DNA from: an uncultured delta proteobacterium
GTDB lineage: Bacteria > Desulfobacterota > Binatia > Binatales > Binataceae
Reading direction: 5' to 3'
Length of the DNA: 64,000 nucleotides
Assembly: GCA_963765675.1 (NCBI GenBank)
Contig: CAVXXK010000001.1
Location: forward strand, 896,001 to 960,000
The notes below the pieces were generated by a model. That model was not told the origin of the DNA. It saw nothing but the letters and a program-made list of their open reading frames with translations, and ran no database searches. A program made the position numbers and the translations under genes. This document shows, piece by piece, positions 1 through 26,009 of this stretch; the stretch's first letter is position 1; every line of letters starts with the position of its first letter.

Positions 1-132
1 CACGAGCGATCTTTTCGGCTCGATCGCGCAGATCTCCTTGTAAAATCGATAGAATATCGAATTCGACATTAGGCGCTCTTGTATATGAGAACGGTGTTAC
101 CGAATCTGTCGAATCAGCTCGATTGTGAAAGT

Positions 133-162
133 TTGACAAATCTTCCTAGTTCCCCTAATGAT
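133..162 (+). promoter_or_regulatory. Putative sigma70 promoter of DUF1329 copy 1
   Basis: TTGACA-17 nt-TAATGAT, conserved with the same spacing upstream of copy 2 (1963-1992). Confidence 0.55.
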
Positions 163-219
163 CGCCCTTCGGGGAGTACCGCGGCAATTTCGCCGCCATC
201 AACCTTTCGGAGGCGGTTC

Positions 220-3729: not shown

Positions 3730-4401
3730 ATGCCCAGTCGGCAATCTGCATTGCAAAAGTATCGATCAAAACGCGTCCGGGCGGTTTTTGATCGACGAAG
3801 AACCGATGGTCCAGTTTGGCAGAGAAGGTTCGAGGAATTCCTCCAGTTGAGTGAACGATGCATCGCCAGCCTTCGACTCACGACTGGCGACACGGTCTTG
3901 GACGTGGGATGCGGAGGTGGCCGGAATTTCGCCGAGCTCGAAAACAGAGTCGGTGCCAACGGAAGAATCATCGGTATCGAGCAGAGTCCAGAGCAACTGG
4001 CCGCGGCACGAGAGCTGGTAGAGCGCAGCCGATGGAGCAACGTTGTGCTGATCAACACGCCAATCGAGGACGCTGAGATACCTTTTGTCGCGGACGCCGC
4101 GCTCTTTTCCTTCACTCACGATATAATGCGTACTCCGTCGGCGTTGCGGAACGTGATCAAACACTTGAAGCCTGGTGGACGCATCGCCGCGATCGGCGTG
4201 AAATGGGCTCCGTGGTGGCATCTCATCACCAATTGGAGAACTTGGCGGGGTTCCAAAGACTTCGTGACCACGTTCGAGGGTTTCAACAAGCCCTGGAGCC
4301 ATTTGGAGAACCTGGTCTCGTCACTGGAAGTCGAATGCACGACTGCCCCGACGCCCGTGATTGGGAGAGCGGGTCTCTACATGGCGGCCGCGGAAAAGTG
4401 A
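3730..4401 (+). CDS. Class I SAM-dependent methyltransferase
   Basis: VLDVGCGGG motif I and LKPGGRI motif; start uncertain (3691 or 3730). Confidence 0.8.
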   Translation: MPSRQSALQKYRSKRVRAVFDRRRTDGPVWQRRFEEFLQLSERCIASLRLTTGDTVLDVGCGGGRNFAELENRVGANGRIIGIEQSPEQLAAARELVERSRWSNVVLINTPIEDAEIPFVADAALFSFTHDIMRTPSALRNVIKHLKPGGRIAAIGVKWAPWWHLITNWRTWRGSKDFVTTFEGFNKPWSHLENLVSSLEVECTTAPTPVIGRAGLYMAAAEK

Positions 4402-4571
4402 AACGAGGACACACCGAACGACTTTAATGTCCAATATTTCTCCCTAGCCCTGCTGCGGCCTATGTGACGAGACGATGCTTCATAATGGACCGGAGCGCTT
4501 CGATCTGATGGCGCACCTGAACGCGAAAGTTCGCAAGCTCTGCAAAGATTCTCCGTGGCGTCCTTGTTAGG

Positions 4572-6825: not shown

Positions 6826-7325
6826 ATACCCTCTCCCTCCGGGAGAGGGCGGCGCGGCGCGATGCTTGCGCTTTTTTCGCAAGCATCGTGACGCGCGGGT
6901 GAGGGTGCTGCTGCTCCGCCGAACTTCGCCTCAGAACACAGGCTAAAGCCTGTGCCACTTAAAGCAAATCACAGTCTCTCCCTCTGAAGTGGCACAGGCT
7001 TCAGCCTGTGTCTCCACTCTCTACCACCTCGTTGCCCCGCGAGCTGTGAGCGACTACCGGAAAAACCAACGCCTCGAAGACGGGCGGCCCCCGAGCCGCC
7101 TCTACGAAAACAAATTCAATTCGTAGGGGCGCGTCGCGACGCGCCCGTCTCCGCACGCCGATGATCCCCCACCTCGTGCTGACTCTCCACCTCGCGCGAA
7201 GAAATGCGATGCCCGCGGCGCCGCGAATCTGAAATACCCTCGCCCTCCGGGAGAGGGCGGCGCGGCGCGATGCTTGCGCTTTTTTCGCAAGCATCGTGAA
7301 ACGCGGGTGAGGGTGCTGCTCCGCC
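6826..7325. repeat. Composite REP mosaic (families F, A doublet at 6937-6958/6989-7010, B2, B, F)
   Basis: 6826-7110 is a near-identical direct repeat of 9927-10214; 7216-7325 repeats 9909-10024. Confidence 0.85.
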
Positions 7326-7370
7326 GCCCGCCAATCCTGGGCCCTTTTAAGCCCGTCAGCGATCGGTGAT

Positions 7371-7913
7371 CTACTTTCTGACTATTCCTCTCATGTCAGA
7401 GAGGTCACGTAGAAAAATCTCTCGAAGTCCATCCAACGTCAAATGACCCATCGGATAAGGACTACCCGATCGCTGCTCATAGAGTCTGTTCAACGTGCGC
7501 CAAACACTCTCGATCGCCCAAATGACTTCGTTCGCAACGAGATTAGCCTCCCGGTAGACAGCATCTGGATCGAAAACGAAATCCTTGTCTATGTGCACGA
7601 AGGTTTTGTCGCGGATGAATTTGACCTTGTCGGAAAACACCTCTAAACGAAAGATGTCTATATCTTTCTTGACGTTGTCTCGTTCGCACCTGTAGAGGTA
7701 CCAGAACGTCGCGGTATCACCGCTATTCTCGAAGATCCGAACTAAGCGGATTAGTCGGTCTCCCAGAAGCGCACTGAATGAGGTGGCCAAGATGACTCCC
7801 GTTCTGGAGTCCAGCAACGCCTCAAGGGCGGCTTGCACGGACATCAGGTTGTAAGTCTCGGCGAGTAACCGCTTGAGGGTCCTCTCAAAACGGTCACGAT
7901 AGTCGGCGTTCAT
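7371..7913 (-). CDS. Putative HEPN-domain (AbiU2-like) protein
   Basis: Lower-GC helical 180-aa ORF with Rx5H motif RDKTFVH preceded by IRLVRIFE; family assignment is inference. Confidence 0.55.
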   Translation of the reverse strand: MNADYRDRFERTLKRLLAETYNLMSVQAALEALLDSRTGVILATSFSALLGDRLIRLVRIFENSGDTATFWYLYRCERDNVKKDIDIFRLEVFSDKVKFIRDKTFVHIDKDFVFDPDAVYREANLVANEVIWAIESVWRTLNRLYEQRSGSPYPMGHLTLDGLREIFLRDLSDMRGIVRK

Positions 7914-8183
7914 CGTCAGGTTATCCTTTTTCGATCAATATGTTGATTCTTCACCACCGACTCCATGGCGCGCGCAGCTTCTTTCTAAATTTCCTCTGAG
8001 TCCTCTGCCGACATAGTCGCAGGTGGCGGGCGCCGCCAACCAAGATGGACGCTCTTTTCTTTTTCGTGGTGTTAGGGGCTTTGGTTGCAGAGGGATTTGT
8101 AAAAATGACATCCTCGGGCCCGACCATGCACCATCACTACGATTTCCGGTGCAGAATGCAAAAAACTGCATCCTATCGAATCG

Positions 8184-9342
8184 TTACACCATCATTTCGA
8201 TGCACTCGTATAATAGTTCTTGCCGTCTCTCACGACGCGCAGGATGAGTTGTTTGTCTAGCTGCTAAGCTCTCTGTATTCCTCAATCAACTTCTTTATTT
8301 TACGAGGCGTGGGATCGGCGCCGTCTATAATTCGACCTGCCGCAGCGATTCGTCGCATCAGAGACGCCTCGCCAAATCTCTCTACGAGATCATCCGACAA
8401 AAGCAAGGTAATAAGAGTATAAAATTGAGGTTGGTCTGTTGCGAGCTTACTATCCTTCAAGGCTGGATGGCGACGGTACGCCTTTGCAAGAAAATCGAAG
8501 GCTTTGCGGAACGGCTGGCGTTCACGTCTGGTAAGAGCGCTATTCCTAGAAGCTTCAAGCTTGATGAAGGCCTTCAGAATCTCGGTTGGCGCGCGATGTT
8601 TTTTGGACCGCGAAAACAAGGCAATCTTCCGTCAATCGTTCCCAGATTCGATCGACTTGCGAATTCCTGTCTGGCAGTCGGCGGACGATGTTCAATCTCT
8701 TCATAACAAATACAAAGCTATTATTTTTCGCTTTGTAGAAATGGTTCGATGTCGTGTTTGCTTTAGTGCAATAAACTCAAAAATCTGCTTGAATAACGGG
8801 TCCTTGCCCAAAGCTTTAACAACATCGAAACGACTAACCTTGACGCCCTGCTGATTTATATCGATGAATAGATTTATTATCTCATCTATTGCCGTATTCT
8901 CATCGTCAAGATCGATCTCGATTGTCGGGATAGCATATTCTCGAAAGGTGCGGACCAATTGGATTTCGAGGTCTTTGAACCCGATCTGCTCGCCGTCTAG
9001 TTCTATATGGAAGTTAGCATTGTTCGCCGCTGGATTGTCGAAAAAATAGCTCGTGACGTTATTGACTTTCAGGTCCAATCGCTCGTCGCCGACAAATAGA
9101 ATCAGACTCTCGAGCCGCTGTTTACCGTCCAAAATGTTGTAAGCAAATTGTGCTCCGTCCGCCTGTTTATAAAGAAATACGGCTGGAATTGGCCGCGCTT
9201 GAATCATGTTAGCTATGAGTTTTTGGCGAGTTGCAAGATTCCATACCGTCCCTCGCTGAAACGGCGGGATCAGATTGATCTTTTGCGTATTGAAATATCC
9301 AATTATTTGGTCAATTTTCATCTCTCGATTGACGTATTTCAT
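8184..9342 (-). pseudogene. DUF262 (GmrSD/ParB-like N-terminal) domain protein with three frameshifts
   Basis: PPFQRGTVW, PIP, ILDGKQRL and F.DINQQG motifs; single-base shifts near 8740, 8626 and 8259 appear to join the ORF pieces to a stop at 8184. Confidence 0.75.
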
Positions 9343-9908: not shown

Positions 9909-10304
9909 CGGCGCCGCAAATCTGAAATACCCTCGCCCACCGGGAGAGGGCGGCGCGGCGCGATGCTTGCGCATCTTTTTCGCAAGCATCGTGACGCGCG
10001 GGTGAGGGTGCTGCTGCTCCGCCGAACTTCGCCTGAAAACACAGGCTAAAGCCTGTGCCACTTAAAGCAAATCACAATCTCTCCCTCTGAAGTGGCACAG
10101 GCTTCAGCCTGTGTCTTCCACTCTCTACCACCTCGTTGCCCCGCGAGCTGTGAGCGACTACCGGAAAACCCAACGCCTCGAAGACGGGCGGCTCCCGAGC
10201 CGCCCCTACGAAAAACTGATTCGCTCGTACGGGCGCGCCGAGACGCGCCCAGCTCTTCACACCCTCCCTTCCTTCGTGTCTTTGTGTCTTAGTGGCCGGT
10301 TGAT
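9909..10304. repeat. Composite REP mosaic (F, A doublet at 10040-10061/10092-10113, B2, B-like, E half)
   Basis: Direct repeat partner of 6826-7325. Confidence 0.85.
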
Positions 10305-14984: not shown

Positions 14985-15028
14985 GTATCAGTAGAGGCTG
15001 ACTTAAAGAGGTAACCGCCTCCAAATTA

Positions 15029-16402
15029 TTATTTGCCGATGCAGAATTCGCGGAAGATTGCGTCGAGTATTTCCTCGCCGGTTACTTCGCCCGTGATCGC
15101 GCCAAGTGCTTCTGCCGCAGCGGTTATATCGACGGCGGAGATCTCGGGCGGCATCCGCGCGAGCACGCTCGCGCGCGCGGCGCGCAGCGAGGAGAGCGCG
15201 CGCTCGAGCGCGTCGCGATGGCGGTCGCGCGAAATCGCGAGCTCGCTCGCGCCGTCGGGAGCGCCGAGCGAATCGACGGCGTGGGCGAGCTCGTCGCGCA
15301 AGGCGGGAAGTCCGTCGCCGGCGAGTGCCGAGATCGCAAGAATCGGCATCGCGATTCCCACCTCTCGCAGCTCCGCGGCTCCGGAGATTTGGGGCAGGTC
15401 CGACTTGTTGAGCAGCGCAACACCGGCGCGTCCGGCGCACAGCCGGGCGACAGCCAAGTCTTCATCGTCGAGTGGACGCGACGAATCGAACACCGCGATC
15501 ACCAGGTCGGCGTCGCCGAGCGCGGCGCGCGAGCGCTCGATACCGAGCCGCTCGATCTCGTCGGGGCTGGCGCGGATTCCAGCGGTATCGAGCAGGGTTA
15601 TCGCGTGGGCGCCGAGCTGGACGACGTCTTCGATCACGTCGCGAGTGGTCCCAGGAATCGCTGTGACGATCGCGCGCTCGGTCCCAAGCATGAGGTTGAG
15701 CAGGCTGGACTTGCCGACGTTGGGCTTGCCGATAATCGCAGCTCGCGCGCCCTCGCGAACGACTCTGCCACGCGAGAAGGAGTCGTGCAAAACGGCAACA
15801 TCGCCGATCACATGCTCGATCTCCTCGGTCATCGCGTGACGCGACGGCATCGCGATATCTTCGTCGGAGAAATCGATCTCGACTTCAAGATGCGCCCGGA
15901 TGTTGACGATTTTCTTTCGTAATTCTTTTACTTTCTTCGACAGATTACCGGAAAGCTGAGCAAGCGCCTGTCTGAGACCGGACTCGCTGCGAGCGGAAAT
16001 CAGATCAGCGACAGCTTCCGCCTCAGCGAGATCGATCCGTTCATTCAGAAATGCACGGCGGGTGAACTCTCCCGGTTCGGCGATTCGCGCTCCGTGCGAA
16101 ATTGCCACGGCGACGATCTGGCGCGTAAGGTAGCTGCCGCCATGGCAGTGCAACTCCGCAACGTCTTCTCCAGTGAAAGATTTAGGCTTGGGGAAGACGA
16201 CGGCCATCGCGCGATCGAGGTTTACTCCAGTCGCGGGGTCGATGACGTCCCCGATGACCAGCTCGCGAGGATTGCCTTCGCGCGCGGGATGCCAAATCGC
16301 ACGGAGGATTTCGAACGCTCGCGGGCCGGAGAGCCGGATGATCGCGACGGCGCCAATTCCCGGCGCGGTGGCGGGCGCAACGATTGTATCGGGCAGGTAC
16401 AT
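15029..16402 (-). CDS. mnmE: tRNA modification GTPase MnmE/TrmE
   Basis: DTIVAPAT, SFTGED, GKPNVGKSSL, GTTRD, DTAG and terminal FCIGK. Confidence 0.98.
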   Translation of the reverse strand: MYLPDTIVAPATAPGIGAVAIIRLSGPRAFEILRAIWHPAREGNPRELVIGDVIDPATGVNLDRAMAVVFPKPKSFTGEDVAELHCHGGSYLTRQIVAVAISHGARIAEPGEFTRRAFLNERIDLAEAEAVADLISARSESGLRQALAQLSGNLSKKVKELRKKIVNIRAHLEVEIDFSDEDIAMPSRHAMTEEIEHVIGDVAVLHDSFSRGRVVREGARAAIIGKPNVGKSSLLNLMLGTERAIVTAIPGTTRDVIEDVVQLGAHAITLLDTAGIRASPDEIERLGIERSRAALGDADLVIAVFDSSRPLDDEDLAVARLCAGRAGVALLNKSDLPQISGAAELREVGIAMPILAISALAGDGLPALRDELAHAVDSLGAPDGASELAISRDRHRDALERALSSLRAARASVLARMPPEISAVDITAAAEALGAITGEVTGEEILDAIFREFCIGK

Positions 16403-16475
16403 CGCGTGGTTAGGTTAGCATCGCGGCCGGGGATGGTACGATGCGTGCGCGCGATATGGCATCGAAGATAAGAGA

Positions 16476-16581
16476 CACAGGCTAAAGCCTGTGACACTTC
16501 CAGGCAAAAATCTCTTAGGTGCCATGGCTTTGAGACTGTGCCAGAGACGATTTTCTTAAGTGGCACAGGCTTTAGCCTGTG
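16476..16581. repeat. REP-A doublet upstream of RAYT (16476-16497 minus, degenerate copy, 16560-16581 plus)
   Basis: CACAGGCTAAAGCCTGTGACAC ... GTGGCACAGGCTTTAGCCTGTG. Confidence 0.85.
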
Positions 16582-16630
16582 TTCTTGGAATTTCGGAAGC
16601 TGGGTATAATTCCCTGCGAGCAAGGGATTC

Positions 16631-17149
16631 ATGGGAAGGAAAGAACCTTCGGACACCGATCCTCATCACTTTCAGGAAATTGATCCCTGGAAGTCCGAAG
16701 ACCTTGTCGCGAAGCACCGCAATCTGCCGCACTTCGAGGTGCCCGGAGCTACATACTTCGTAACCTTTCGGTGCCGCTCGAAGATCACGCTTCTGCCTGA
16801 GTCACGTGATCTGGTCATGGAGACAATCCGGACATGCGACCGCACGGTCATCGAGTTGGATGCGGCCGTCGTGATGCCGGATCACGCGCACGTAATTTTC
16901 AGGCTCATTGATACCCGCACGCTCAGCCAGGTTGTTCAGCGGATCAAGGGTCGATCGGCCCGTCAGATCAATCAGGTCCTTGGGACCGAGGGTGCGGTCT
17001 GGATGGACGAGAGTTTCGACCACATCATTAGGCATGAGGCGGAGCTGGAAGAGAAAATCGAATACATCAGGCAAAATCCGGTCAAGCGAGGGCTTGCGGT
17101 GCGGCCGGAAGATTACAGGTGGTTGTTTGTGAGAGAAGACACAGGCTAA
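16631..17149 (+). mobile_element. rayT: REP-associated tyrosine transposase (RAYT/TnpA-REP, HUH Y1 family)
   Basis: RNLPH, YFVTF, HUH motif MPDHAH, WxxESFDHIIR, catalytic Y in YIRQNPVKRGL; flanked by inverted REPs; stop codon lies inside the downstream REP. Confidence 0.92.
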
Positions 17150-17316
17150 AGCCTGTGCCACTTAAAACAAAAATCTAAATCACTTAGAACAAAAATCTGA
17201 ATCTCGGAGGTGGTAAAGGCTCCGGCTTCTGTTAAGAGGACTTTTTCATGTGGCACAGGCTCTGGCCGTCTATAGGGGGAGGAACAGTTCCTAAGTGGCA
17301 CAGGCTTTAGCCTGCG
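17140..17316. repeat. REP-A cluster downstream of RAYT (17140-17161 minus; degenerate copies near 17210 and 17250; 17295-17316 plus)
   Basis: Repeated GTGGCACAGGCT motif. Confidence 0.85.
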
Positions 17317-17338
17317 TTCTGAGGAAGCGGAATTGATC

Positions 17339-17776
17339 ATGAAGACGGGAAATGGATTCGTCGCTTACCTTCCTGGATTCAAAGGTTCGGACGCCCTACT
17401 GATTTTGGCGGATTCCGAGACGATCGATTGGCTGATGGCACAGTTCGGCCAGCTTGCGAGCGCTCCAGTTGGATCCGTCTGTCCGGCTTTTCTCATCGGA
17501 GACGGAAATCCGATCGAATCGGATGGCCTTTGTCTTCTGGTAGTAGAACCGGAAAATCAGGCAGAAGGCAGCCGCCTTATCCGAGATTCTGACGGGACAT
17601 TCAGGTGGAGTGTCTCGCGGCTATCGGCGGGTCATTATCGCGAGCTGCTTTCTGGCATATCAGGGCCGCATCCGGCGCATCAGTATCTCGATCCCAACAA
17701 CAGCCCTCCCGCGCCAGTGGTTATCATTTCCCGGGACGAATATGACGCCGAAACTTTCCGTCGTCCGAAGAACTAG
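17339..17776 (+). CDS. Hypothetical protein flanked by inverted REP-A
   Basis: RBS-like GAGGAAG; no recognised family; its 5' end is repeated at 18303 and 21159; REP-A minus at 17833-17854. Confidence 0.6.
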   Translation: MKTGNGFVAYLPGFKGSDALLILADSETIDWLMAQFGQLASAPVGSVCPAFLIGDGNPIESDGLCLLVVEPENQAEGSRLIRDSDGTFRWSVSRLSAGHYRELLSGISGPHPAHQYLDPNNSPPAPVVIISRDEYDAETFRRPKN

Positions 17777-18041
17777 GTGCCTGATACGGGGAGTTATATC
17801 GCGTCGTCACGTAAGCATCGCGGCGGGGAAGACACAGGCTAAAGCCTGTGCCACTTAAGACGAAAACGGAAGCAGCAGCCAAAATGCCAAGGCACCGCGT
17901 CACAAAAAAAACACCAAGGCACCAGAAAAAGAGAGCGGGGACTTGCTTTTGGGAAGGACTCGCTTCTGCTTCGTGTCTGTTCTTCGTGCCTTGGTGATTT
18001 GATTGGCTCGCGGAGGGTCAGCACGAGGGGCGGGAGTACCG

Positions 18042-18450
18042 GCTTGCGGAGACGGGCGCGTCGCGACGCGCCCCTACGAATCTGATTCTTATTCGTAGGG
18101 GCGGCTCGGGAGCCGCCCGTCTTCGCAGGGCTGAACAGAACCCCTGCGTGTAGATCTTTCGCCTCCTGCCAAGATGGCAATTCAAACCGCCATGACACTT
18201 CGCGTCGGCCGACGGGCCGTCGGCATCCACTGACAGTAGGAAGCTGCTGGCCACAGGCGATCGGGCTCTCGGCTACATTGCGCGGGGGGCGATCGAGGAT
18301 GTCAGGCTTTAGCCTGCGTTCTGAGGAAGCGGAATTGATCATGAAGACGGGAAATGGATTCGTCGCTTACCTTCCTGGATTCAAAGGTTCGGACGCCCTA
18401 CTGATTTTGGCGGATTCCGAGACGATCGATTGGCTGATGGCACAGTTTGG
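18042..18450 (+). repeat. About 410-bp direct repeat, copy 1 (REP B/B2/C + FAD-gene 3' copy + 148-bp head)
   Basis: Aligns with 20899-21306. Confidence 0.9.
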
Positions 18451-18549
18451 GTAGCGATGGTGTGTCGTGGAGTCGGCCAACCCGCGCTGCGTGCGTAGGT
18501 AGCTCTCATACTCGTCACGCAGGAAGCCCTCATCTCTGTCCTTTCGCAA
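18451..18549 (-). pseudogene. Possible tyrosine recombinase N-terminal fragment
   Basis: Reads LRDEYESYLRTQRGLADSTTHH, resembling the YLxxxRGLxxxT motif of XerC/D and RIT integrase SAM-like domains. Confidence 0.45.
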
Positions 18550-18599
18550 CCGCTGCTGCGCACCGCAATTGCTCGACGGGGCGATACCATTGATCGGCG

Positions 18600-18626
18600 T
18601 TGACTAGACCGACCGGTTGGTATACT
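18600..18626 (+). promoter_or_regulatory. Promoter and NemR-like operator upstream of the TetR gene
   Basis: TTGACT...TATACT (15-nt spacer) enclosing TAGACCGACCGGTTGG, similar to the E. coli NemR box TAGACCGACTGGTCTA. Confidence 0.55.
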
Positions 18627-18638
18627 CGATCACAGACA

Positions 18639-19283
18639 ATGGCCGAAAGTCCATCACGAACGAGCATTCTTAAGACGGCCGGCGATCTGATGCTCAAGTA
18701 CGGCTATGCCGCAACGTCGATCGACGACATTTGTTCCAAAGCGCGGGTAACAAAGGGGAGCCTGTACCACTTTTTTGAAACCAAGGAAGAACTCGGGCTC
18801 GCGGTCCTGAACGGATTCTACGAGCGAGGCGTCGCGCGCGTGGCAAGTGGCGCATACATGGGGATGAATGACCCGTACCAGCGTCTGCTCGGTCTGTTCG
18901 ATCATCTCGAGACGATTGGACCGGACCTCTGGCGCCACGGATGCCTGATGGGGAACTTCGCCTGCGAGTTCGCCGAGTCGAGCCAAACTATACGGCGCCG
19001 CGTAGCCGGGATGTTCGAAGAGCTGGTGAATAGGTTGTCGCCGATCTTCGGGCCGATCGCGCGCGACCGAAAGGAAGCGGACGAGCTGGCGGAGCAAACG
19101 CTCATGGTGATCGAGGGTGCGGTCGTTATGGCAAGGGCGCACGACGATCCGAGTCGCATAGCCTCAGGCGTGCGCCGCTTTCGGCGCACGATCGAGGCCC
19201 AGATCGGGAAGTCGAGAACAGCTACGGAGAAAATAAACCGAGGGCGAGCAAGTTCGCCCCTGCAACACAAGGGAGGAGAATAG
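18639..19283 (+). CDS. TetR/AcrR family regulator (NemR/LmrA-like)
   Basis: GYAATSIDDIC...KGSLYHFFETKEEL HTH and GCLMGN motif. Confidence 0.9.
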   Translation: MAESPSRTSILKTAGDLMLKYGYAATSIDDICSKARVTKGSLYHFFETKEELGLAVLNGFYERGVARVASGAYMGMNDPYQRLLGLFDHLETIGPDLWRHGCLMGNFACEFAESSQTIRRRVAGMFEELVNRLSPIFGPIARDRKEADELAEQTLMVIEGAVVMARAHDDPSRIASGVRRFRRTIEAQIGKSRTATEKINRGRASSPLQHKGGE

Positions 19284-19285
19284 CC

Positions 19286-19888
19286 ATGTCCGAGTCGTGG
19301 ACCCTTAAAGGATCGTACTTCGAAACCTGCAACTGCGAGACCGCCTGCCCGTGTGTCTTTTTGAGCCCTCCCACCGAAGGCGATTGCACCGTGCTTGTCG
19401 CCTGGCACGTTGACGAAGGCCGCTTCGGTGAAGTCGCGCTCAATGGCCTCAACGTGGCGCTTGCGGTCCACAGTCCGGGCCACATGGCAGAGGTTAAGTG
19501 GAAGGCGGCGCTTTACCTCGACGAACGCGCCTCCGGAGAGCAGCAAGAAGCCCTAACGAAAATCTTCAGCGGTCGGGCGGGGGGTCATCCTGGCCGTGTC
19601 GCCCAGCATATTGGCGAAGTGCTTGGGGTCAGAAGCGTACCGATCGAGTATAAGGCGGACGGTAAGCGACGCTCAGTTCGAGTGGGCAATGTGGCGGATG
19701 CGACGATTCAAGCGATCGCGGCGCCGGCGGGCGACGTAACCGTCAGCGGTCATCCGCTGGCGCTAGCGCCCGGCTTCCCGGCGGTCGCGGCACGGTCGGA
19801 AAGGCTCCGCTACCAGGATCACGGCTATAGTTGGGAGATCTCGAAAAAGAACGGGTTCTATTCTCCGTTCCAGTACGCCAATGGGTGA
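19286..19888 (+). CDS. DUF1326 domain protein
   Basis: W.L.G.YFETCNCETACPC...GDC motif. Confidence 0.85.
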   Translation: MSESWTLKGSYFETCNCETACPCVFLSPPTEGDCTVLVAWHVDEGRFGEVALNGLNVALAVHSPGHMAEVKWKAALYLDERASGEQQEALTKIFSGRAGGHPGRVAQHIGEVLGVRSVPIEYKADGKRRSVRVGNVADATIQAIAAPAGDVTVSGHPLALAPGFPAVAARSERLRYQDHGYSWEISKKNGFYSPFQYANG

Positions 19889-20684
19889 CTCGACCCTGAA
19901 GGTGCGAGATCCAATCACCGCCCTGCTGCGCCGCGATCGCTGGGTGGTTCTGGGCGGCTTGGCCGCACTGACTCTCTTCACCGCCGTCGAAAGCCGGTCG
20001 GTCGGAGATGCGATGATGCGCACCCCATCGCCTTTGTTGTGTGTATTTCTCTCGGCCCGATGGGGACCCGCCGAGCTGGCGACAATCGCGCTGATGTGGA
20101 GCGTGATGATGGTCGCCATGATGACGCCGACCGCATCGCCGATGGTGTTGGCGTTCGCCGGGCTTGAGCGTCGGCGTATCGGCGGCACAGGCGCTCCTTG
20201 GGGAACGACGAGCACTTTTCTTAGCGGATATCTGCTGGTCTGGATGGGCTTCAGCGTACTGGCGACGCTCGCCCAGTGGGGTCTTCATTCCGCAGCGATG
20301 TTATCGGCTGGCGGAATGAAGATGGCGAGCTCTTCGGTCGCTGCGGTGCTTCTGGTGAGCGCGGGAGTCTTTCAGTTCTCGTCAGCGAAATCAGCCTGCC
20401 TGAAGCATTGCCGCACACCGGTCGGCTTCCTGCTCTCCGAGTGGCGCGAGGGAATGGGTGGCGCGCTTGTGATGGGCGTTCGTCACGGGCTGTACTGCGT
20501 CGGCTGTTGCTGGCTATTGATGCTGCTTTTGTTCGTCGTCGGCGTGATGAACGCAGCGTGGTGCGCGGCGCTTGCCACTCTCGTTCTTGCAGAAAGGGTT
20601 TTGCCCGGCGGGCTGTGGCTCGCGCGCACAGTGGGTATCGTACTCGCTCTGTCAGGTGGCGCTTTGGCCGCCGGCATCTGGTAG
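19881..20684 (+). CDS. DUF2182 metal-binding integral membrane protein
   Basis: WSVMMVAMMTP, KSACLKHCRTP and HGLYCVGCCWLLM; overlaps DUF1326 gene. Confidence 0.85.
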   Translation: MGDSTLKVRDPITALLRRDRWVVLGGLAALTLFTAVESRSVGDAMMRTPSPLLCVFLSARWGPAELATIALMWSVMMVAMMTPTASPMVLAFAGLERRRIGGTGAPWGTTSTFLSGYLLVWMGFSVLATLAQWGLHSAAMLSAGGMKMASSSVAAVLLVSAGVFQFSSAKSACLKHCRTPVGFLLSEWREGMGGALVMGVRHGLYCVGCCWLLMLLLFVVGVMNAAWCAALATLVLAERVLPGGLWLARTVGIVLALSGGALAAGIW

Positions 20685-20708
20685 CGGCCACCGCCGGTGT
20701 TGTGTAAC

Positions 20709-21306
20709 GCGTCGGCCGACGGGCCGTCGGCATCCACTGATTCTTATTCGTAGGGGCCGCTCGGGAGCCGCCCGTCTGGGAAGAGCCAAAGATAGCCGAT
20801 CCGTGTAGAGCTTTCCCCTTTTGTTCATGATGGCAATTCAAACCGCGATGACGCTTCGCGTTGGCCGACGGGCCGTCGGCATCCACTGACAGAAGGGAGC
20901 TTGCGGAGACGGGCGCGTCGCGACGCGCCCCTACGAATCTGATTCTTACTCGTAGGGGCGGCTCGGGAGCCGCCCGTCTGGGAAGAGCCGAAGATAGCCG
21001 ATCCGTGTAGAGCTTTCCCCTTTTGTTCACGTTGACAATTCAAACCGCGATGACGCTTCGCGTCGGCCGACGGGCCGTCGGCATCCACTGACAGAAGCAA
21101 CAGCTGGCCACAGGCAATCGGGCTCTCGGCTACATTGCGCGGGGGCGATCGAGGATGTCAGGCTTTAGCCTGTGTTCTGAGGAAGCGGAATTGATCATGA
21201 AGACGGGAAATGGATTCGTCGCTTACCTTCCTGGATTCAAAGGTTCGGACGCCCTACTGATTTTGGCGGATTCCGAGACGATCGATTGGCTGATGGCACA
21301 GTTCGG
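20709..21306 (+). repeat. REP mosaic containing direct repeat copy 2 (20899-21306) and a partial internal duplication
   Basis: Three REP-C, two B2 and one B palindrome, followed by the FAD-gene 3' copy and the 148-bp head. Confidence 0.9.
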
Positions 21307-21367
21307 AAGGCGGCAAAACACTAGCCTGTGGTGGTGTATTTCAGGTCGGGACCTTGCTTGAGAAGAC

Positions 21368-22093
21368 TCACTTTACGTCCAATTCCTTGAGTTTTGCCGC
21401 TGCCGTTCCGTAGTTGCCAAGATGAAAAACAGATGCTCCTGACGGAGAGAAGGTGAAATCCTCAAACGGTGCTGCGACCATCTTTTTCAGGTAATCCACC
21501 GGCGCAAGGCCGGTGGTAACGTGCAGCTCTAAATGCTCGCCGGAATGCTCCGGCACATATACCTCGATGTAGTGAATCGTCGCCTCATTAATATCCGGGG
21601 CAGCGGGAGTGGTGACGAATGCGGCCGCGGTTCCGGTCCGCACCGTGTAAGGCGCCACGGCGTCAATCAAATCCTTCTGCAGCTTCACCAATTCCGGAGT
21701 CGTCTCCACCACGATGCCCGATAAGCCTAAGCCCGGCAGCGACGGAGAGGTAAGGTAGTAATATTTGTAGGCCTTCAATTTAAAACTGGCAATATTGTAG
21801 CTTTCGAAGACTTTGCCGGCGGCGGCGTAAATCTTGTCGAGGTCCGCCGTGCGGACGTAACGCTGCAACATCGAGATGTGCGGATGATGCGTCGCGTCGA
21901 GCGAAAAGCCCTTCGGGAACACCGAGCGCAGGCGAGCGTTCACGGCTTGCGCGTGATGCACCATCGTGGCATCCGGCTCCAGCGCTATGTCGATGGCAGT
22001 GATGGGACTTGGTTGTGCCATCGCTGCGCCCCAATAGCCCAGCAACGATGCCAGGAAAACGACGATTGAGGCGGCCTTCGCGAATCTGTTCAT
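21368..22093 (-). CDS. Secreted 2H-phosphoesterase-like protein
   Basis: Signal peptide (AMA-Q); two Hx(S/T) motifs, HPHISM and LHVTTG. Confidence 0.65.
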   Translation of the reverse strand: MNRFAKAASIVVFLASLLGYWGAAMAQPSPITAIDIALEPDATMVHHAQAVNARLRSVFPKGFSLDATHHPHISMLQRYVRTADLDKIYAAAGKVFESYNIASFKLKAYKYYYLTSPSLPGLGLSGIVVETTPELVKLQKDLIDAVAPYTVRTGTAAAFVTTPAAPDINEATIHYIEVYVPEHSGEHLELHVTTGLAPVDYLKKMVAAPFEDFTFSPSGASVFHLGNYGTAAAKLKELDVK

Positions 22094-22151
22094 GCAATGC
22101 TCCGCTTATTGGATAGGAGTAAAAACCGTCCGCGGACGTCTCGAATCGTCT

Positions 22152-23177
22152 TCATTTGTCAAAAGTGAAAATTCGCTTCCAGTCATTCTTCATGCTGATC
22201 ACGTTCCAGCCCCTGGACTTGGCCTCATCGTAGAGCGCCTGCGTGAACGTCCCGACTTTGGTGTCCGGTAGACCATCGGCAGGGCCGTATGCGTACTCGC
22301 GTGCGGGATCATCGTGCAACACCAACATCATCAACCGTGCGCCGTCGCCCGCCTGGGTCCATTCCAGCATCTGCTTGTCGCCGGGCGAGTTGCCAAACGC
22401 CGCGTAGGGCCGCTTGCCGATAAACAGGTTGATCCCGACGGGCTTGCCGGCATTGTCGTCGATGAAGAACACTTTGGGCTCGCGCATCAGTACCGGTTTG
22501 CCGTCCCGGTACTCGAATTTGGTCAGGATGCTCGATCCCACGACCTGCTCGGGCGGGACACCATAGACACTTTCGCTGTATACCCGCACGAACTCCTGGC
22601 CGCCGCCAGTGACGATGTAGGTTTTGAATCCATTAGCGCGCAGGTAATCCATGACCTCGAGCATCGGCTGGTAGACGAGGGCCGCGTACGGCTGATGAAA
22701 TCTCGGATCTCTGGCGGTTGCCAACCACTGCTTCACAAGCTGCTGGAACGCTTCGGTCGTCATTCCGGCATGGGTCGCTGCGAGGATAATTTCCCAGTCC
22801 GATTCCGAGAACTTGCCGATCGCCGCACGATCGTTCGTGAGAACCGCCTTGAACGGATCGCGTTCTTTCCATTCGGGATGCTGCGGGGCCAGCTCGTGCA
22901 CGCGGGCTAGCGCAAACGTAGCCTGAGTATACAGGGGATGTTCGACCCAAAGGGTGCCATCCTGATCGAAGGTGGCAATGCGATCCTGAGGTTCGACGTA
23001 TTTGGTGCCAGACTTGTCTGTAACTTCTTTGACGAAAGAAACGATCGCCTGTTTCGCCGGCCCGTCGTTCCACGATGCAAGCGCTGGTGTCTGAGCGTTT
23101 GCGTGGAGACTCAACGCCAGAAACATGACGATGACGAAAGCGCCGGGCAGCTTCGGGATCTTCCGACGAGAGTTCAT
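22152..23177 (-). CDS. Secreted HAD family hydrolase (acid phosphatase-like)
   Basis: Signal peptide; FDQDGTLW, VTGGG and GNSPGD motifs. Confidence 0.88.
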   Translation of the reverse strand: MNSRRKIPKLPGAFVIVMFLALSLHANAQTPALASWNDGPAKQAIVSFVKEVTDKSGTKYVEPQDRIATFDQDGTLWVEHPLYTQATFALARVHELAPQHPEWKERDPFKAVLTNDRAAIGKFSESDWEIILAATHAGMTTEAFQQLVKQWLATARDPRFHQPYAALVYQPMLEVMDYLRANGFKTYIVTGGGQEFVRVYSESVYGVPPEQVVGSSILTKFEYRDGKPVLMREPKVFFIDDNAGKPVGINLFIGKRPYAAFGNSPGDKQMLEWTQAGDGARLMMLVLHDDPAREYAYGPADGLPDTKVGTFTQALYDEAKSRGWNVISMKNDWKRIFTFDK

Positions 23178-23332
23178 TGCGCTCCTTATCGAACGATTCT
23201 CGATTAACTTTGGTCAAATCGACGCTCCGACTCTATTGTACCTTGGTACAAGGAGGACGGTCTCCCTCGCGCTCCCCCTGTTCAGGGGCGCGGTGGGGCT
23301 GTTGCGGTGTCGGCTATGGGGCGCAAGCATCG

Positions 23333-23386
23333 CAAACCGCGATGACGCTTCGCGTCGGCCGACGGGCCGTCGGCATCCACTGACAG
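23333..23386. repeat. REP family C (GCCGACGG-GC-CGTCGGCATCCAC; GTGG foot on minus strand)
   Basis: Copies near 18205, 20712, 20863, 21063, 32063, 54444 and 54572. Confidence 0.8.
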
Positions 23387-23428
23387 GAAAAAGACCGCTG
23401 GCGCGCCATAGGCGCTCGAGCTTTCGCG

Positions 23429-24670
23429 CTACATTGCGCGGAGGCGGTCGAGGATGTCTTCGGAGAATAGTTCTGCGGGAAGTAGCTCGGGGCCTACGAA
23501 GGCGGCGGGACCGAGATCGGGAAGGGCGTTGCGGGCGCGCGCTTCGCGGACTTTGATTCGGCGCGCGCGCGCATCGGGGCCGAACTCTACGTTCAAGATC
23601 GACAGGGTCGAGGCGGTCAGGCGCAGCCGGCGCATCCGCTCGCGCCGCTCCTCGGCGTAGGGACGGAAAATCTCCGGAGTCCAGTCGCGATTCTCGAGCA
23701 TCAGGTCGCGCACGATTCGCACGTCGCGATAGGTGATCGAAAGCCCCTGCCCGATAATCGGATCGTTGTGGCCGGCGGCGTCGCCGATCAGAACCACACC
23801 GGGCGCGTACGGCGTGTCGGTCCAGGTGTCCTCGTTACCGTAGGAGTTGCAGGGCCCGGCAGGGGTCGCGTTCGCAAGATACTCGCTCGCGGGGACGTAT
23901 CCGAGTTTGAACGCGTCGAGGAAGCGCGCCTGGTTGTCGGCGCCGGCGAACCGGCGGCGGTCTTCGAGCGCATAGCAGATGTACAGCCGGACCCGGCTCG
24001 CCGATTGCGGAAACGCGAGAAAGTTGATCGTGTTTTCGGTTCCGAAGATTTGCAGGTCCTCGGGCCATCCGTCGGTGTCGTCAACCAGAAGCCCCGCCAT
24101 CAGATGGTGCGAAGGATCGCGATGATACTCGATACCGGCCTGGCCGCGGACGATCGAGTTGCGGCCGTCGGCGCCGATCACGATGCGCGGGTTGTATTCG
24201 GTAAGGCGGCCGTCGTCGCGAAATCGCACTGCGGGCGAGGCGCCGGGGGTGACTGCGACGTCGGTGACGCCCCGGATGAGCACCGCTCCTCGCGAGGTCG
24301 CGGCGGCATTGAGGAGATCGCACATCTCGGGATGACGCATGCATAGCGGAGGCGGCAGGCCTATCGACTCGAACGCGGTGAGGTCGAGCGTCTGGCTTTC
24401 GGCGCTGGCGCGATCGAGATCGTCGCCGTAGGGGATGTGGCGCTTGAGGTGATGCCCGCCCGCTTTTTTAAGGAGATCATACAATCCGAGCCGCTTGGTC
24501 TCGGCGACTCCCCACGGAGCGATCCACTCGCCGCGCACGTGATCGACGTGGACGGTGGATTTCTCGAGGATGGTCGTCGCGATTCCGGCTTGCGCGAGGC
24601 TGGCGGCGAGTGCGCTGCCGCCGATTCCTCCGCCGATTATCACGACGTCGGGATTGTTTTGGTTGGGCAT
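23429..24670 (-). CDS. FAD-dependent oxidoreductase/monooxygenase
   Basis: DVVIIGGGIGG, IGADGRNS and LIGDAAGHNDPIIGQG motifs. Confidence 0.9.
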   Translation of the reverse strand: MPNQNNPDVVIIGGGIGGSALAASLAQAGIATTILEKSTVHVDHVRGEWIAPWGVAETKRLGLYDLLKKAGGHHLKRHIPYGDDLDRASAESQTLDLTAFESIGLPPPLCMRHPEMCDLLNAAATSRGAVLIRGVTDVAVTPGASPAVRFRDDGRLTEYNPRIVIGADGRNSIVRGQAGIEYHRDPSHHLMAGLLVDDTDGWPEDLQIFGTENTINFLAFPQSASRVRLYICYALEDRRRFAGADNQARFLDAFKLGYVPASEYLANATPAGPCNSYGNEDTWTDTPYAPGVVLIGDAAGHNDPIIGQGLSITYRDVRIVRDLMLENRDWTPEIFRPYAEERRERMRRLRLTASTLSILNVEFGPDARARRIKVREARARNALPDLGPAAFVGPELLPAELFSEDILDRLRAM

Positions 24671-24725
24671 CGTACGAGCGATGATAAGCACAAAATCGGC
24701 GATGTTGTCAGGAGGCGGCGGAAGA

Positions 24726-24872
24726 CACAGGCTAAAGCCTGTGCCACTTAAAACAAAGATTCAAATCAACAGTCAAAACACCAAGGCACCAAGGAAAGAC
24801 ACCAAGGCACCAAGAAGAAAGGAAAAAGAGAGCGGGCCTTCCTTTGTGTCTTGGTGTCTTGGTGGTTTGATT
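24726..24872. repeat. REP-A (24726-24747, minus) plus family E repeat
   Basis: CACAGGCTAAAGCCTGTGCCAC followed by CACCAAGGCACCAAG arms. Confidence 0.8.
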
Positions 24873-25028
24873 GGGCACAGGCTGCGCAGCACGGTGCTTG
24901 CTCGGGGGGCGCTGGTGTGGTTGCATGGCGGATCGGGCGCGGAAGACTTTGCGATGCGTCGCGCCCGCTATGATCGAAATCTTAAAGCGCGCCAGTTCTC
25001 TGGCGCGGTATAAAGTTGGCTCCGACCG

Positions 25029-25187
25029 ATGAAAAGGACCTACCAGCCGCACAATCGCCGCCGCAAACGAACCCACGGATTCCTTGCCCGGATGGCCTCG
25101 CCGGGAGGACGCGCAGTTCTGAAACGCCGCCGCGCCAAGGGCCGCAAACGCCTGACTCCCACGATTCCGCGCAAGCAGCCGGGCTGA
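25029..25187 (+). CDS. rpmH: 50S ribosomal protein L34
   Basis: [42 protein letters not shown] (52 aa, not in the ORF track). Confidence 0.97.
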
Positions 25188-25218
25188 TCCGCGCTCATCT
25201 AGAGATGAGCTCTCCAAG

Positions 25219-25626
25219 ATGAGCTTCGGGGCTGCGAGCTTCGGAGCCGCCGACCGGCTGCATCGAAGCGCGGAGTTCCTGCGCCTTCAGCGCCGGGGAA
25301 TCCGGCTGCAGGCCAAGCACTTCGTTCTCTATGCGGGCAGAATTGACTATGCGGGCGATCATGCGGGCAAACACGAATCCGCCGCGAGTCCGCGCAAACG
25401 GCTCGGGATTACCGTCTCGCGACGGGTGGGCAACGCAGTGGTCCGAAATCGGGTCAAACGCCGCGTGCGTGAATGCTTTCGGCAGATGCTGCGGGAGCGA
25501 CTTGACGAGGGGATGTCGCTAGTGGTGATTGCGCTGGTGGGGGCGGGTAATCTTGAGCAGACGGCTATCAATGCCGAGCTTCTGACTGCTACTTTGAACC
25601 TCGCCGGAAGGCGGCCACGCCGATGA
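25219..25626 (+). CDS. rnpA: Ribonuclease P protein component
   Basis: [25 protein letters not shown] motif; follows rpmH. Confidence 0.95.
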
Positions 25627-26009
25627 GTTTTCGCAAGGGCGACAATATCTATCAATTAGCCGGCCGCCTCGCGGCCAGCGGATTCCAATTAGCCGGCCGC
25701 CTCGCGGCCATCGGATTTGGATTCGCGATGCGCGGGATTTCCGCGATCGCCCGCGCACTCGCGCTCGCGATGATCGCGATCTATCGGCTGGCGATATCGC
25801 CCTTGCTGGTCGCGATGTTCGGGCGGGCTTGCCGCTTCGAGCCGACCTGCTCGGAGTACGCCGCGCTCGCGATCAGGCGGCATGGGATCGTGCGCGGAGG
25901 CGCGATGGCGGCCAGAAGGCTCGCGCGATGCCATCCACTGGGAGCGCATGGCTACGACCCGGTTCCCGCCGCGAGTGACGGGCGGGGAAATACCTCAGGA
26001 AGAATTTAA
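25623..26009 (+). CDS. yidD: Membrane protein insertion efficiency factor YidD
   Basis: ISP...[11 protein letters not shown]...RCHP...GYDPVP; start uncertain. Confidence 0.93.
25653..25718 (+). repeat. 33-bp tandem duplication at the yidD 5' end
   Basis: CAATTAGCCGGCCGCCTCGCGGCCA(G/T)CGGATT(C/T) twice, in frame. Confidence 0.9.

Follow-up and report, generated by a model that had tools for sequence, protein, structure and literature searches.

The closest described relatives of the locus reported here are the REPtrons, or RAYT-REP systems, in which a REP-associated tyrosine transposase (RAYT) acts on repetitive extragenic palindromic (REP) sequences. In the sections of PMC3333891 that we draw on, the Escherichia coli enzyme TnpA(REP) binds GTAG plus a hairpin, nicks single-stranded DNA at C-T steps more than 400 nt from the bound REP, and transfers strands; Y1 enzymes act on the lagging-strand template. 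TnpA(REP) has been proposed there as the builder of tandem bacterial interspersed mosaic elements (BIMEs), under a model that already has distant cuts, strand transfer, circles, and tandem growth. Here we describe a 6.2-kb array of unrelated genes with repeated boundaries, next to a RAYT gene in an uncultured soil bacterium of the Binataceae. The array lies in a 64,000-nt stretch of DNA (positions 896001-960000 of the 2.44-Mb contig C1), which we call the window and whose coordinates we use throughout. With moderate confidence, we conclude that the 6.2 kb are a strain-specific patchwork: an illegitimate joint formed in a REP hairpin (REP-A), and homologous recombination then added, removed, and swapped units.

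Like a REPtron as those sections portray it (TnpA(REP), structure 4ER8), the locus has a single-copy Y1 HUH transposase with inverted cognate REPs (5' GTGG plus a hairpin). The REP 5' signature GT(A/G)G plus hairpin, the dispersed copies (about 60 here), the single cognate RAYT, and the tandem structures beside the gene that vary between strains are all found here as well. The differences are in the array itself. REPtron arrays in the same sections consist of 30-100-nt REP/BIME units only, whereas these units are 1.0-2.9 kb long and hold whole genes and the copied ends of two neighbor genes; furthermore, the array joints do not follow the C-T rule. Simple tandem amplification is another close comparison. 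As in such amplifications, there is one identical illegitimate novel joint per internal boundary, and units are gained and lost through repeats (as seen in a variant contig, C10, and in a contig from the public run X2). Unlike them, the units share only their first and last portions, carry unrelated genes attached at the same nucleotide, and have different alleles at their ends. Some join points of tandem duplications in Pseudomonas are in intergenic repeats, according to the portion of PMC7661048 used here. No paper that describes RAYT-linked gene arrays turned up in our literature searches, as judged from titles and abstract openings.

An array of three units in one variable slot

The window belongs to genome G000, a 4.5-Mb assembly in 16 contigs (95.6% complete, 4.3% contamination). 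The array fills one variable slot, which lies between the REP-A hairpin downstream of the RAYT gene and the 3' end of a conserved gene for a flavin adenine dinucleotide (FAD)-dependent monooxygenase. The RAYT gene (16631..17149, plus strand) is intact and ends 152 nt upstream of the array, as a preliminary description of this DNA had proposed. The monooxygenase gene (23429..24691, minus strand; Pfam FAD_binding_3; hereafter the FAD gene) is the right border. The conserved gene on the left border is mnmE (15029..16402, minus strand; Pfam MnmE_helical and TrmE_N), which is part of a parB-parA-rsmG-mnmG-mnmE block.

Each unit begins with the same sequence, the head. A repeat search of positions 15000-26000 returned a 166-nt family (D1) with members at 17283-17448 (90%), 18285-18450 (the reference), and 21141-21306 (99%). 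Its 148-nt core, at 17301-17448, 18303-18450, and 21159-21306 (all on the plus strand), is 99.3-100% identical among the copies by BLAST, with one or two bases off per copy in the alignment (about one in the first description). Three 148-nt copies at this level of identity (99%) cannot have arisen by chance. The head consists of the 3' part of the REP-A hairpin and 37 codons of an open reading frame (ORF) that we call ORF145 (17339..17776, plus strand). Head copy 1 has a complete REP-A(+) before it (17292..17317, plus strand; GTGG + CACAGGC TTTA GCCTGCG), the only complete one at the head of the array, and it runs on into the intact ORF145. Head copy 2 is cut at codon 37 of ORF145 and has a TAG stop after it. 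Head copy 3 is bridged by a contig from the public run X1, which covers 21150-21469. By BLAST, neither the head nor the tail described below has other copies in the genome beyond this locus and its allele on C10. The head is also absent from all 10 congeners, and its matches elsewhere cover the REP-A part only.

Each unit ends with a tail that includes a copy of the 3' end of the FAD gene. The copied piece is 31 nt long (nine codons and the stop) and is found at 18273-18303 and 21129-21159, with the native sequence at 23428-23458. The tail of unit 1 (17870..18303) contains a palindromic element (CACCAAGG), a D3 palindrome (18042-18164), REP-C (18170-18240), a spacer (allele A), and the FAD copy. 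The tail of unit 2 (20697..21159) contains pieces of REP-C and D3, spacer allele A, and the FAD copy, with members of repeat families D2, D3, D4, D8, and D12; within it is a 202-nt tandem duplication that is 96% identical (20737-20895 and 20939-21097) and consists of pieces of REP-C and the D3 palindrome. The native tail (23320..23458) contains REP-C, spacer allele B, and the true FAD 3' end. The preliminary description gave every unit the same tail. This holds for the copied FAD end, but the tails of units 1 and 2 resemble the native tail at only about 85% and carry the other spacer allele. Their spacer is the allele native to the relative G003, and the window's native tail has the allele of G001.

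A repeated tail-head joint and a recurrent head end

The joint between a tail and the next head, GAGGATGTC followed by AGGCTTTAGCC, links the FAD gene's last nine codons with the REP-A 5' arm, and it is present twice. Its wider context, ...GCGATCGAGGATGTC followed by AGGCTTTAGCCTG, is the same at 18303/18304 and at 21159/21160. Both parents of the joint are in the window. On the FAD side, ...GGTCGAGGATGTC continues into TTCGGAG at 23458/23459 (site b). On the REP-A side, ...AAGTGGCAC continues into AGGCTTTAGCC between 17301 and 17302 (site a), which is within the 5' arm of REP-A(+); AGGCTTTAGCC starts 3 nt into that arm. Sites a and b share one base, and the microhomology at the joint is 1 nt. 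Site b is outside of hairpins, 13 nt 3' of one. The same joints appear in every copy that we saw. About 210 nt around the two tail-head joints are ~98% identical (four differences); further left, the two tails resemble each other at just 77-89% and contain dispersed REP-C and D3 palindromes. One origin of the joint, followed by copying and by later exchanges in the REP clusters, would fit this pattern.

The other end of the head also recurs. All heads end after TGGCACAGTT(C/T)GG, and the sequence then continues with CCAGCTT in the intact ORF145, GTAGCGA in unit 2, and AAGGCGG in unit 3. The two payloads had been reported to join the head at the same nucleotide, and they do so to within 1-3 nt. 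In unit 3 the exact position can shift by 1 nt, since other genomes have a G in the parent context too, and in unit 2 by up to 3 nt, owing to a T/C difference. We estimate the chance of two independent joints this close within the 438-nt ORF at about 7/438, and so small a chance implies a hot spot. The REP-like sequence that had been noticed at the head end is there as well: an 8-mer identical to the REP-A arm, TGGCACAG, is at 17436-17443, 5 nt from the head end. The 4.5-Mb genome has 131 copies of TGGCACAG, counting both strands, and about half are inside REP-A, so its presence 5 nt from the head end is unlikely to be due to chance.

Units are gained and lost between strains

The preliminary description suggested that comparisons might uncover a variable number of units, and they did. 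The same assembly includes a variant of the locus at 98-99% identity, contig C10 (19.4 kb). C10 4850-12205 corresponds to C1 906090-913445, and C10 12061-18568 corresponds to C1 914303-920809; what C10 lacks is precisely unit 1, a 1002-nt stretch from head to head. The first head in C10 is flanked by the full REP-A on the left side and by the unit-2 variant (TTTGG) on the right side, which is the outcome expected of recombination between heads 1 and 2. The divergence between C1 and C10 is a mosaic that ranges from ~0.15% across unit 3 to ~5% in part of mnmE, as expected for recombining strains. Their homology ends exactly at a REP-A(+). To the left of that element (C10 1-4849) is another cassette, of restriction-modification type, with genes for a T5orf172-ResIII protein, an Eco57I-type methylase, and an MmeI-type methylase. 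Past the FAD gene (C10 18569-19450) are extra small genes that look toxin-antitoxin-like by eye.

Public sequencing runs were available to us as Logan contigs only, at a depth of 2-7; no run contained more than 24% of the sampled words, and the parts they leave uncovered carry no information. Besides the X1 contig mentioned above, a 454-nt contig from run X2 joins 20862 to 23357 via 30 nt of shared REP-C, so that unit 3 is skipped. Run joints with dispersed repeats, short sides, or unknown letters between them were left unused (18079 to 20747, 18081 to 18040, 19352 to 20125, 20932 to 23341, and 22670 to 22942). Overall, these variants show directly that units come and go, presumably by homologous recombination.

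Could the array instead be an artefact, with strain variants chained at shared repeats during assembly? The number of contigs, the estimated contamination, and the presence of a second haplotype contig of the locus would be compatible with such an error, and unit 1 is in tandem with unit 2 only in C1. However, the tail-head joint and both of the head-payload joints are present in two separately assembled contigs that are 1-2% apart, the head-payload 3 joint is bridged by a contig from another run, and the joints are novel sequences rather than overlaps of repeats. We consider an artefact to be highly improbable.

The arrangement is not fixed among relatives either. (A few of the genomes that we compared are unpublished: G010, one of the six with an FAD orthologue; G027, one of the four with the left flank of payload 3; and G089 and G187, which contribute one ORF145 scrap and one scrap match, respectively. 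All of the conclusions stand without them.) The FAD gene has orthologues in 6 of the 10 congeners, with 81-92% amino acid identity and 80-88% DNA identity within the genus. In two near-complete congeners, G009 and G005, mnmE, the RAYT gene, and the FAD gene are syntenic and the site is empty: the ~110-160 nt from the RAYT gene to the 3' end of the FAD gene contain only REP elements. Because of this, the whole array is an insertion relative to these two genomes. G003 represents another state. Its FAD gene is adjoined by a tail that carries spacer allele A, along with what is left of payload 3 (window 21306-21457, 97% identical, with the genes deleted). To the left of this remnant is more of istB, not a head, so payload 3 already adjoined the FAD gene before it acquired the head. 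A search for sequence that would extend the G003 contig past this flank found the pattern in that contig only.

Payloads are leftovers of horizontally acquired DNA

The gene that donated the head, ORF145, has no match in Pfam or NCBIfam. It has 15 full-length homologues (59-90% identity) with a conserved N-terminus, and the residues at the head end (DWLM-A/S-QFG) are conserved among them, so ORF145 is a real gene. It is an accessory gene with a sporadic distribution: it is present in 7 of 165 genomes of the family, including G000, and the other six genomes have four full-length genes and two internal scraps, none of which is a head. In metagenomes, a degenerate pattern for the head end matched 44 loci, of which three encode relatives of ORF145, all full length, and there were no new joints. 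Other payloads had been anticipated at the same junction; there were none in the 164 other genomes of the family or at the 44 metagenome loci. A scan of a genome collection with the ORF145 alignment yielded one locus, in a distant metagenome-assembled genome, with no REP or RAYT nearby.

Payload 2 begins with a fragment of the 5' region of a tyrosine-recombinase gene (18451..18518, minus strand), which abuts head 2. It had been described as an integrase-like scrap. This origin is borne out in that 59 nt match the N-terminal region of a tyrosine-recombinase gene of genome G145 at 83%, adjoining ORFs with Phage_int_SAM_1 and Phage_integrase domains, but only ~68 nt are left. The fragment has no family match of its own and no paralogue in its own genome, and on C10 it has a frameshift. 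It is followed by a block of three genes on the plus strand (18519..20688), which encode TetR (18600-19283), DUF1326 (19286-19888), and PpoB2/DUF2182 (19881-20684) proteins. Pfam confirmed these labels, as well as that of the HAD hydrolase in payload 3. From 18519/18524 on, payload 2 is 92-93% identical in G003 and G172, and the block is 77-85% identical in G020, G026, and G069.

Payload 3 begins with the 3' remnant of an IS21-family istB gene (21307..21367, plus strand), consisting of the last ~18 nt of istB and the sequence that follows; the rest of the insertion sequence (IS) is missing. It continues with genes for a putative secreted 2H phosphoesterase of 241 amino acids (21368..22093, minus strand) and a HAD hydrolase (22152..23177, minus strand; Pfam HAD, 4.2e-10). 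The 2H label that the first gene had received is based on a sub-threshold match to PF13563 (E = 0.032) and two H-x-S/T-x motifs that were read by eye; a comparison to the sequences in the PDB gave a chance match only (E = 0.4). The left flank of payload 3 is conserved in G036, G069, G027, and G003. In G069, this flank has a complete IstB (PF01695, E = 1.7e-89) after an rve transposase, and its match to the window begins 18 nt ahead of the istB stop. In other genera, payload 3 (window 21306-23256) is 93% identical in G036, 88% in G069, and 85% in G027. Its 93% identity to the DNA of another genus, versus 80-88% for the FAD gene within the genus, points to horizontal transfer of payload 3. An IS21-family element or remnant is always on the same side of the 2H-like/HAD pair in the other genera, and the pair looks like a horizontally spreading module that is linked to IS21.

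On the head side, then, one payload starts 18 nt before the istB stop and the other with a 68-nt piece of a recombinase gene. These ends are arbitrary cuts in the remnants of mobile genes. Rather than cassettes with recombination sites of their own, the payloads are what is left of DNA that was acquired horizontally.

This bears on the proposal that the array works like an integron. As in an integron, unrelated genes are separated by a repeated boundary module beside a recombinase-type gene, and the number of units varies. However, the boundaries are REP-C/D3 palindromes plus a 31-nt FAD end rather than attC sites (no attC model was run), and among the Pfam-scanned ORFs from ~15 to 28 kb there is no integrase family that could stand for IntI, only the 68-nt fragment. 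The payloads include several genes each and truncated remnants, payload 2 has its own TetR, and no cassette pool was found elsewhere: heads and tails are confined to this locus. Orientation is mixed, as payload 3 is transcribed against the head, and there is therefore no integron-like expression logic.

The tyrosine-recombinase fragment raises a different question, namely whether the units are decayed integrative elements that entered serially at the 3' end of the FAD gene, each supplying a new 3' end (the tail) in place of the old one and sharing one arm (the head). The order of parts, reading from the FAD gene, is that of classic tandem islands: the true 3' end, an element, a pseudo 3' end, an element, a pseudo 3' end, and the old chromosome (ORF145, REP-A, RAYT). 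As in such islands, each boundary has the 3' end of the target gene, the far end has the oldest context, and a recombinase fragment lies at the end of a unit, abutting head 2. But tyrosine recombinases need a core, and sites a and b share just one base. No integrase is intact within 14-27 kb; what remains of a recombinase gene is 68 nt in unit 2, and unit 3 has none, with an IS21 remnant in its place. Finally, the head is local chromosomal DNA, copied from ~1 kb away from the tail, and a circle formed from the slot would carry just such a piece. Serial integration of this kind seems improbable to us.

The RAYT and the REP-A hairpins

The RAYT exceeds the cut-off of the NCBIfam equivalog model NF047646 (REP_Tyr_transpos; 114.2 bits versus 80) and also matches Pfam Y1_Tnp. 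It aligns with E. coli TnpA(REP) (PDB 4ER8; E = 7e-8), with the HUH motif (HAH) and the Tyr of EYIRQNPV in register. An inverted pair of REP-A elements brackets the gene (16558-16582, plus; 17139-17164, minus), and its stop codon, TAA (17147-17149), sits in the loop of the downstream REP-A(-). The general form of REP-A is GTGG + CACAGGC-TTYA-GCCTGTG. A search for GTGG + CACAGGC-N4-GCCTGTG returned 60 oriented hits in the genome, including 5 on C10, and 10 hits are within C1 901.7-920.7 kb, around the array. This RAYT is the only cognate one in the genome (besides its C10 allele); two other RAYTs are 38-40% identical. The last codons of the RAYT gene and REP-A(-) recur together after ORF145 (17828-17875) and upstream of the FAD gene (24721-24768).

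Minus-strand genes (parB, parA, rsmG, mnmG, and mnmE) lie to the left of the array and plus-strand genes (rnpA, yidD, and yidC) to the right. The cumulative GC skew of C1 has its global minimum at ~908 kb (window ~12 kb), at the parAB-rsmG-mnmG block, and so the locus is a few kilobases from the likely origin. The array is ~5-12 kb from this point, on the right replichore, where the plus strand is the lagging-strand template. dnaA is 114 kb off, at C1:1010406, and the origin of this organism may not be beside dnaA.

With an intact RAYT 152 nt upstream, the array might have been built by iterative capture that the RAYT itself runs: single-stranded circles of the slot, cut at the REP-A arm (a) and at the FAD 3' end (b), would be reinserted next to REP-A, and at the head end the RAYT would cut and transfer strands to attach new payloads. 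The preliminary description had inferred a capture system of this iterative, site-specific kind. Much of the evidence above is compatible with it, including the identical joints in all copies, the REP-A-like 8-mer beside the head end, and the variable number of units. Site b is a C-T step, as for the E. coli enzyme, and site a also follows a C. The plus strand is the template on which, in the excerpts of PMC3333891 cited above, Y1 enzymes act. The same RAYT family accompanies arrays at two other loci (L087 and G005; see below). Also, in the two congeners with empty sites, the orthologous RAYT genes each have a 1-nt frameshift before the catalytic Tyr (G009, at L018 16230-16250; G005, at L019 ~3700), although there are just two cases and these could be sequencing errors. 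Each of these congeners also has a full-length RAYT paralogue elsewhere (57-58% identity).

What stands of that proposal is the real array beside an intact RAYT, its variable number of units, the lack of a fixed arrangement among relatives, the shared joints, and the REP-A-like 8-mer at the head end. On the other side, no further payload was found at the joint in the 164 genomes or the 44 metagenome loci, and no head or tail exists elsewhere in the genome. The payloads' ends are arbitrary cuts in remnants of mobile-element genes, and payload 3 is older than its head. The joints have no cleavage dinucleotide in common, the head end is not in a hairpin, and recombination between repeats explains all of the changes in unit number that we saw. 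We therefore regard capture run by the RAYT as unlikely. A comparison with IS200/IS605 elements that carry passengers leads to a similar contrast. A Y1 transposase, hairpin-dependent chemistry, the lack of target duplication, and possible circle junctions are alike. Unlike in those elements, the RAYT is outside the units, the units start inside a broken hairpin, and they are found at a single locus (plus the C10 allele) and in none of the 10 congeners.

Another explanation does without the enzyme: the palindromes themselves would break, through a hairpin nuclease, gyrase, or template switching at forks near the origin, and the illegitimate joints would later be remodeled by homologous recombination. 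REP sequences are gyrase sites and join points of tandem duplications in Salmonella. Site a is in the 5' arm of REP-A, a joint at L087 is in a REP-A loop, and a repeat boundary in G005 is in the loop of a GCATCGC hairpin. The joints have 0-1 nt of microhomology. Other strain-specific segments also have REP clusters at their borders, as at the break between C1 and C10 and around a GmrSD cassette, which is bracketed by a 285-nt REP module. But neither the head end nor site b (13 nt 3' of a hairpin) is in a hairpin, and breakage of palindromes gives no reason for the head end to have been hit twice. We think that this explanation is quite unlikely.

Look-alike loci beside RAYT genes and REP clusters

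In G005 (L019, G005:C5), a 276-nt direct repeat of the 5' end of mnmE and its upstream sequence (4303-4561 and 7163-7438; 90.6% identical) flanks a 2.6-kb insert with a gene for a 534-amino-acid alpha/beta-hydrolase, beside the orthologous RAYT gene. The repeat boundary is in the loop of a GCATCGC...GCGATGC hairpin. The repeat ends in ...GCGGCCGAGGATG, which resembles site b of the window (GGCGGTCGAGGATGTC); the motif common to site b and this boundary, CGAGGATG, is a post hoc match of two sites.

A metagenome contig, L087 (1-5436), has three tandem RAYT copies that are 85-92% alike. They are separated by a homologue of ORF145 (76%) and by two genes for TAP-like alpha/beta hydrolases. The third RAYT is joined to the preceding gene inside the loop of a REP-A(+), and its start codon is apparently missing. 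At both G005 and L087, the copies of the repeats differ by as much as lineages do, which points to stacked alleles of different lineages, not to recent copying within the genome. We considered whether the hydrolase inserts at the two loci are the same cassette and rejected this, as they are 26-29% identical.

The window itself has a second array-like architecture, with a boundary module that is non-coding. A ~285-nt direct repeat (6826-7110 and 9929-10214; 98% identical), which includes several REP types and a REP-A doublet, brackets 2.8 kb with a GmrSD-type restriction gene (8701-9342) and two further ORFs.

In the portion of PMC3390384 used here, accessory DNA is reported to favor REP deserts, and the region around the origin usually lacks REPs. 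The array locus departs from both of the trends given there.

Other repeats in the window

Between ORF145 and the tail of unit 1 is a diverged copy of the start of mnmE and its upstream hairpin (17787..17828), which is 81% identical to 16390-16431. It is fused to a copy of REP-A(-) at 17832-17860, and the whole stretch (17787..17860) has members of repeat families D9, D5, and I8. Farther away, at window 79-1539 and 2050-3369, are tandem DUF1329 paralogues whose 5' ends are 84% identical over 300 nt, and a further related 3' end, the third, is at 7942-7988.

Discussion

A plausible history of the array begins with a single illegitimate joint that linked FAD codon -10 to the 5' arm of REP-A(+). 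The structure of this joint is evident in the window, and its origin would be a one-time event. By tandem duplication or via an excised circle, the slot from a to b would then have become a repeat unit; one illegitimate joint in the REP-A hairpin suffices to create such a unit. Subsequent homologous recombination from one 148-nt head to another, or from one REP-C tail to another, would have added, removed, and traded units; this is a probable mechanism for the variation seen in C10 and X2. Some of these exchanges may have been with the DNA of related strains, like Campbell-type single crossovers, so that alternative versions of the slot became stacked in tandem. The payloads, as described above, are remnants of DNA from elsewhere: the 2H/HAD pair that travels with an IS21 element and the TetR-DUF1326-PpoB2 block with its recombinase fragment. 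Lastly, the 3' end of the head appears to have been the left partner of at least two illegitimate joints, which suggests a recurrent break beside the REP-A-like half-site ATGGCACAG. Such a break would most likely come from the RAYT nicking single-stranded DNA, with replication run-off and end joining to follow.

Seen this way, the RAYT/REP cluster is a break-prone hot spot where accessory DNA piles up, rather than a dedicated capture machine. Nicking by the RAYT at the array is plausible. As the origin of the breaks it would be our tentative first choice, though less likely than not, and we place it above a dedicated capture system.

Several observations weigh against this patchwork account. 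Homologous recombination leaves unexplained why two independent illegitimate joints fell within 1-3 nt of each other, and the break site that we invoke to account for them is a deduction from the joints themselves. Folding placed the head end in no significant hairpin (z = +0.6 and +1.0). The top-strand steps at the joints have no common cleavage dinucleotide: they are C-T at b, C-A at a, G-G or G-C at the head end, and T-T in L087. Of these, site b fits the E. coli C-T rule and site a follows a C, but the head end and the L087 joint do not fit. Broken REP-A elements are found only at the array, in that 3 of the 16 listed hits are the array joints and the other 13 were judged by eye to be degenerate REPs or chance; thus, RAYT-made joints are no general habit of this genome. 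A single origin of the tail-head joint is unproven, as recurrent site-specific formation from closely related donors would look similar. Finally, the three-unit form of C1 is backed by its own assembly only, plus C10 for units 2 and 3, and the runs are represented only as Logan contigs.

A bolder idea is that the RAYT and its REP hairpin form a gene-accreting platform by the origin, which nicks single-stranded DNA at or near the REP, frees gene-sized circles of the slot, and joins broken ends to foreign DNA, with accessory genes accumulating in tandem at its side. We find this doubtful. If true, it would also explain the partial-gene duplications at the G005 inserts and the three-RAYT array of L087, and RAYTs would gain their first genome-shaping role beyond the spread of REPs. 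On the benefit of a RAYT to its host, the portions of the literature used here discuss only REP spread and possible structural roles.

Regardless of which account is correct, the locus is a compact natural test case, with an intact RAYT beside datable joints, one of them within the RAYT's own hairpin. Strain variants, relatives with empty sites, and two independent look-alike loci are available for comparison. Annotators could mistake the pattern of this array for cassettes or for misassembly. If the enzyme makes the joints, then REP/RAYT systems would be a route by which accessory and defense genes accumulate near the origin. If it does not, the locus still illustrates how REP clusters seed long partial-gene duplications and stack alternative alleles in tandem.

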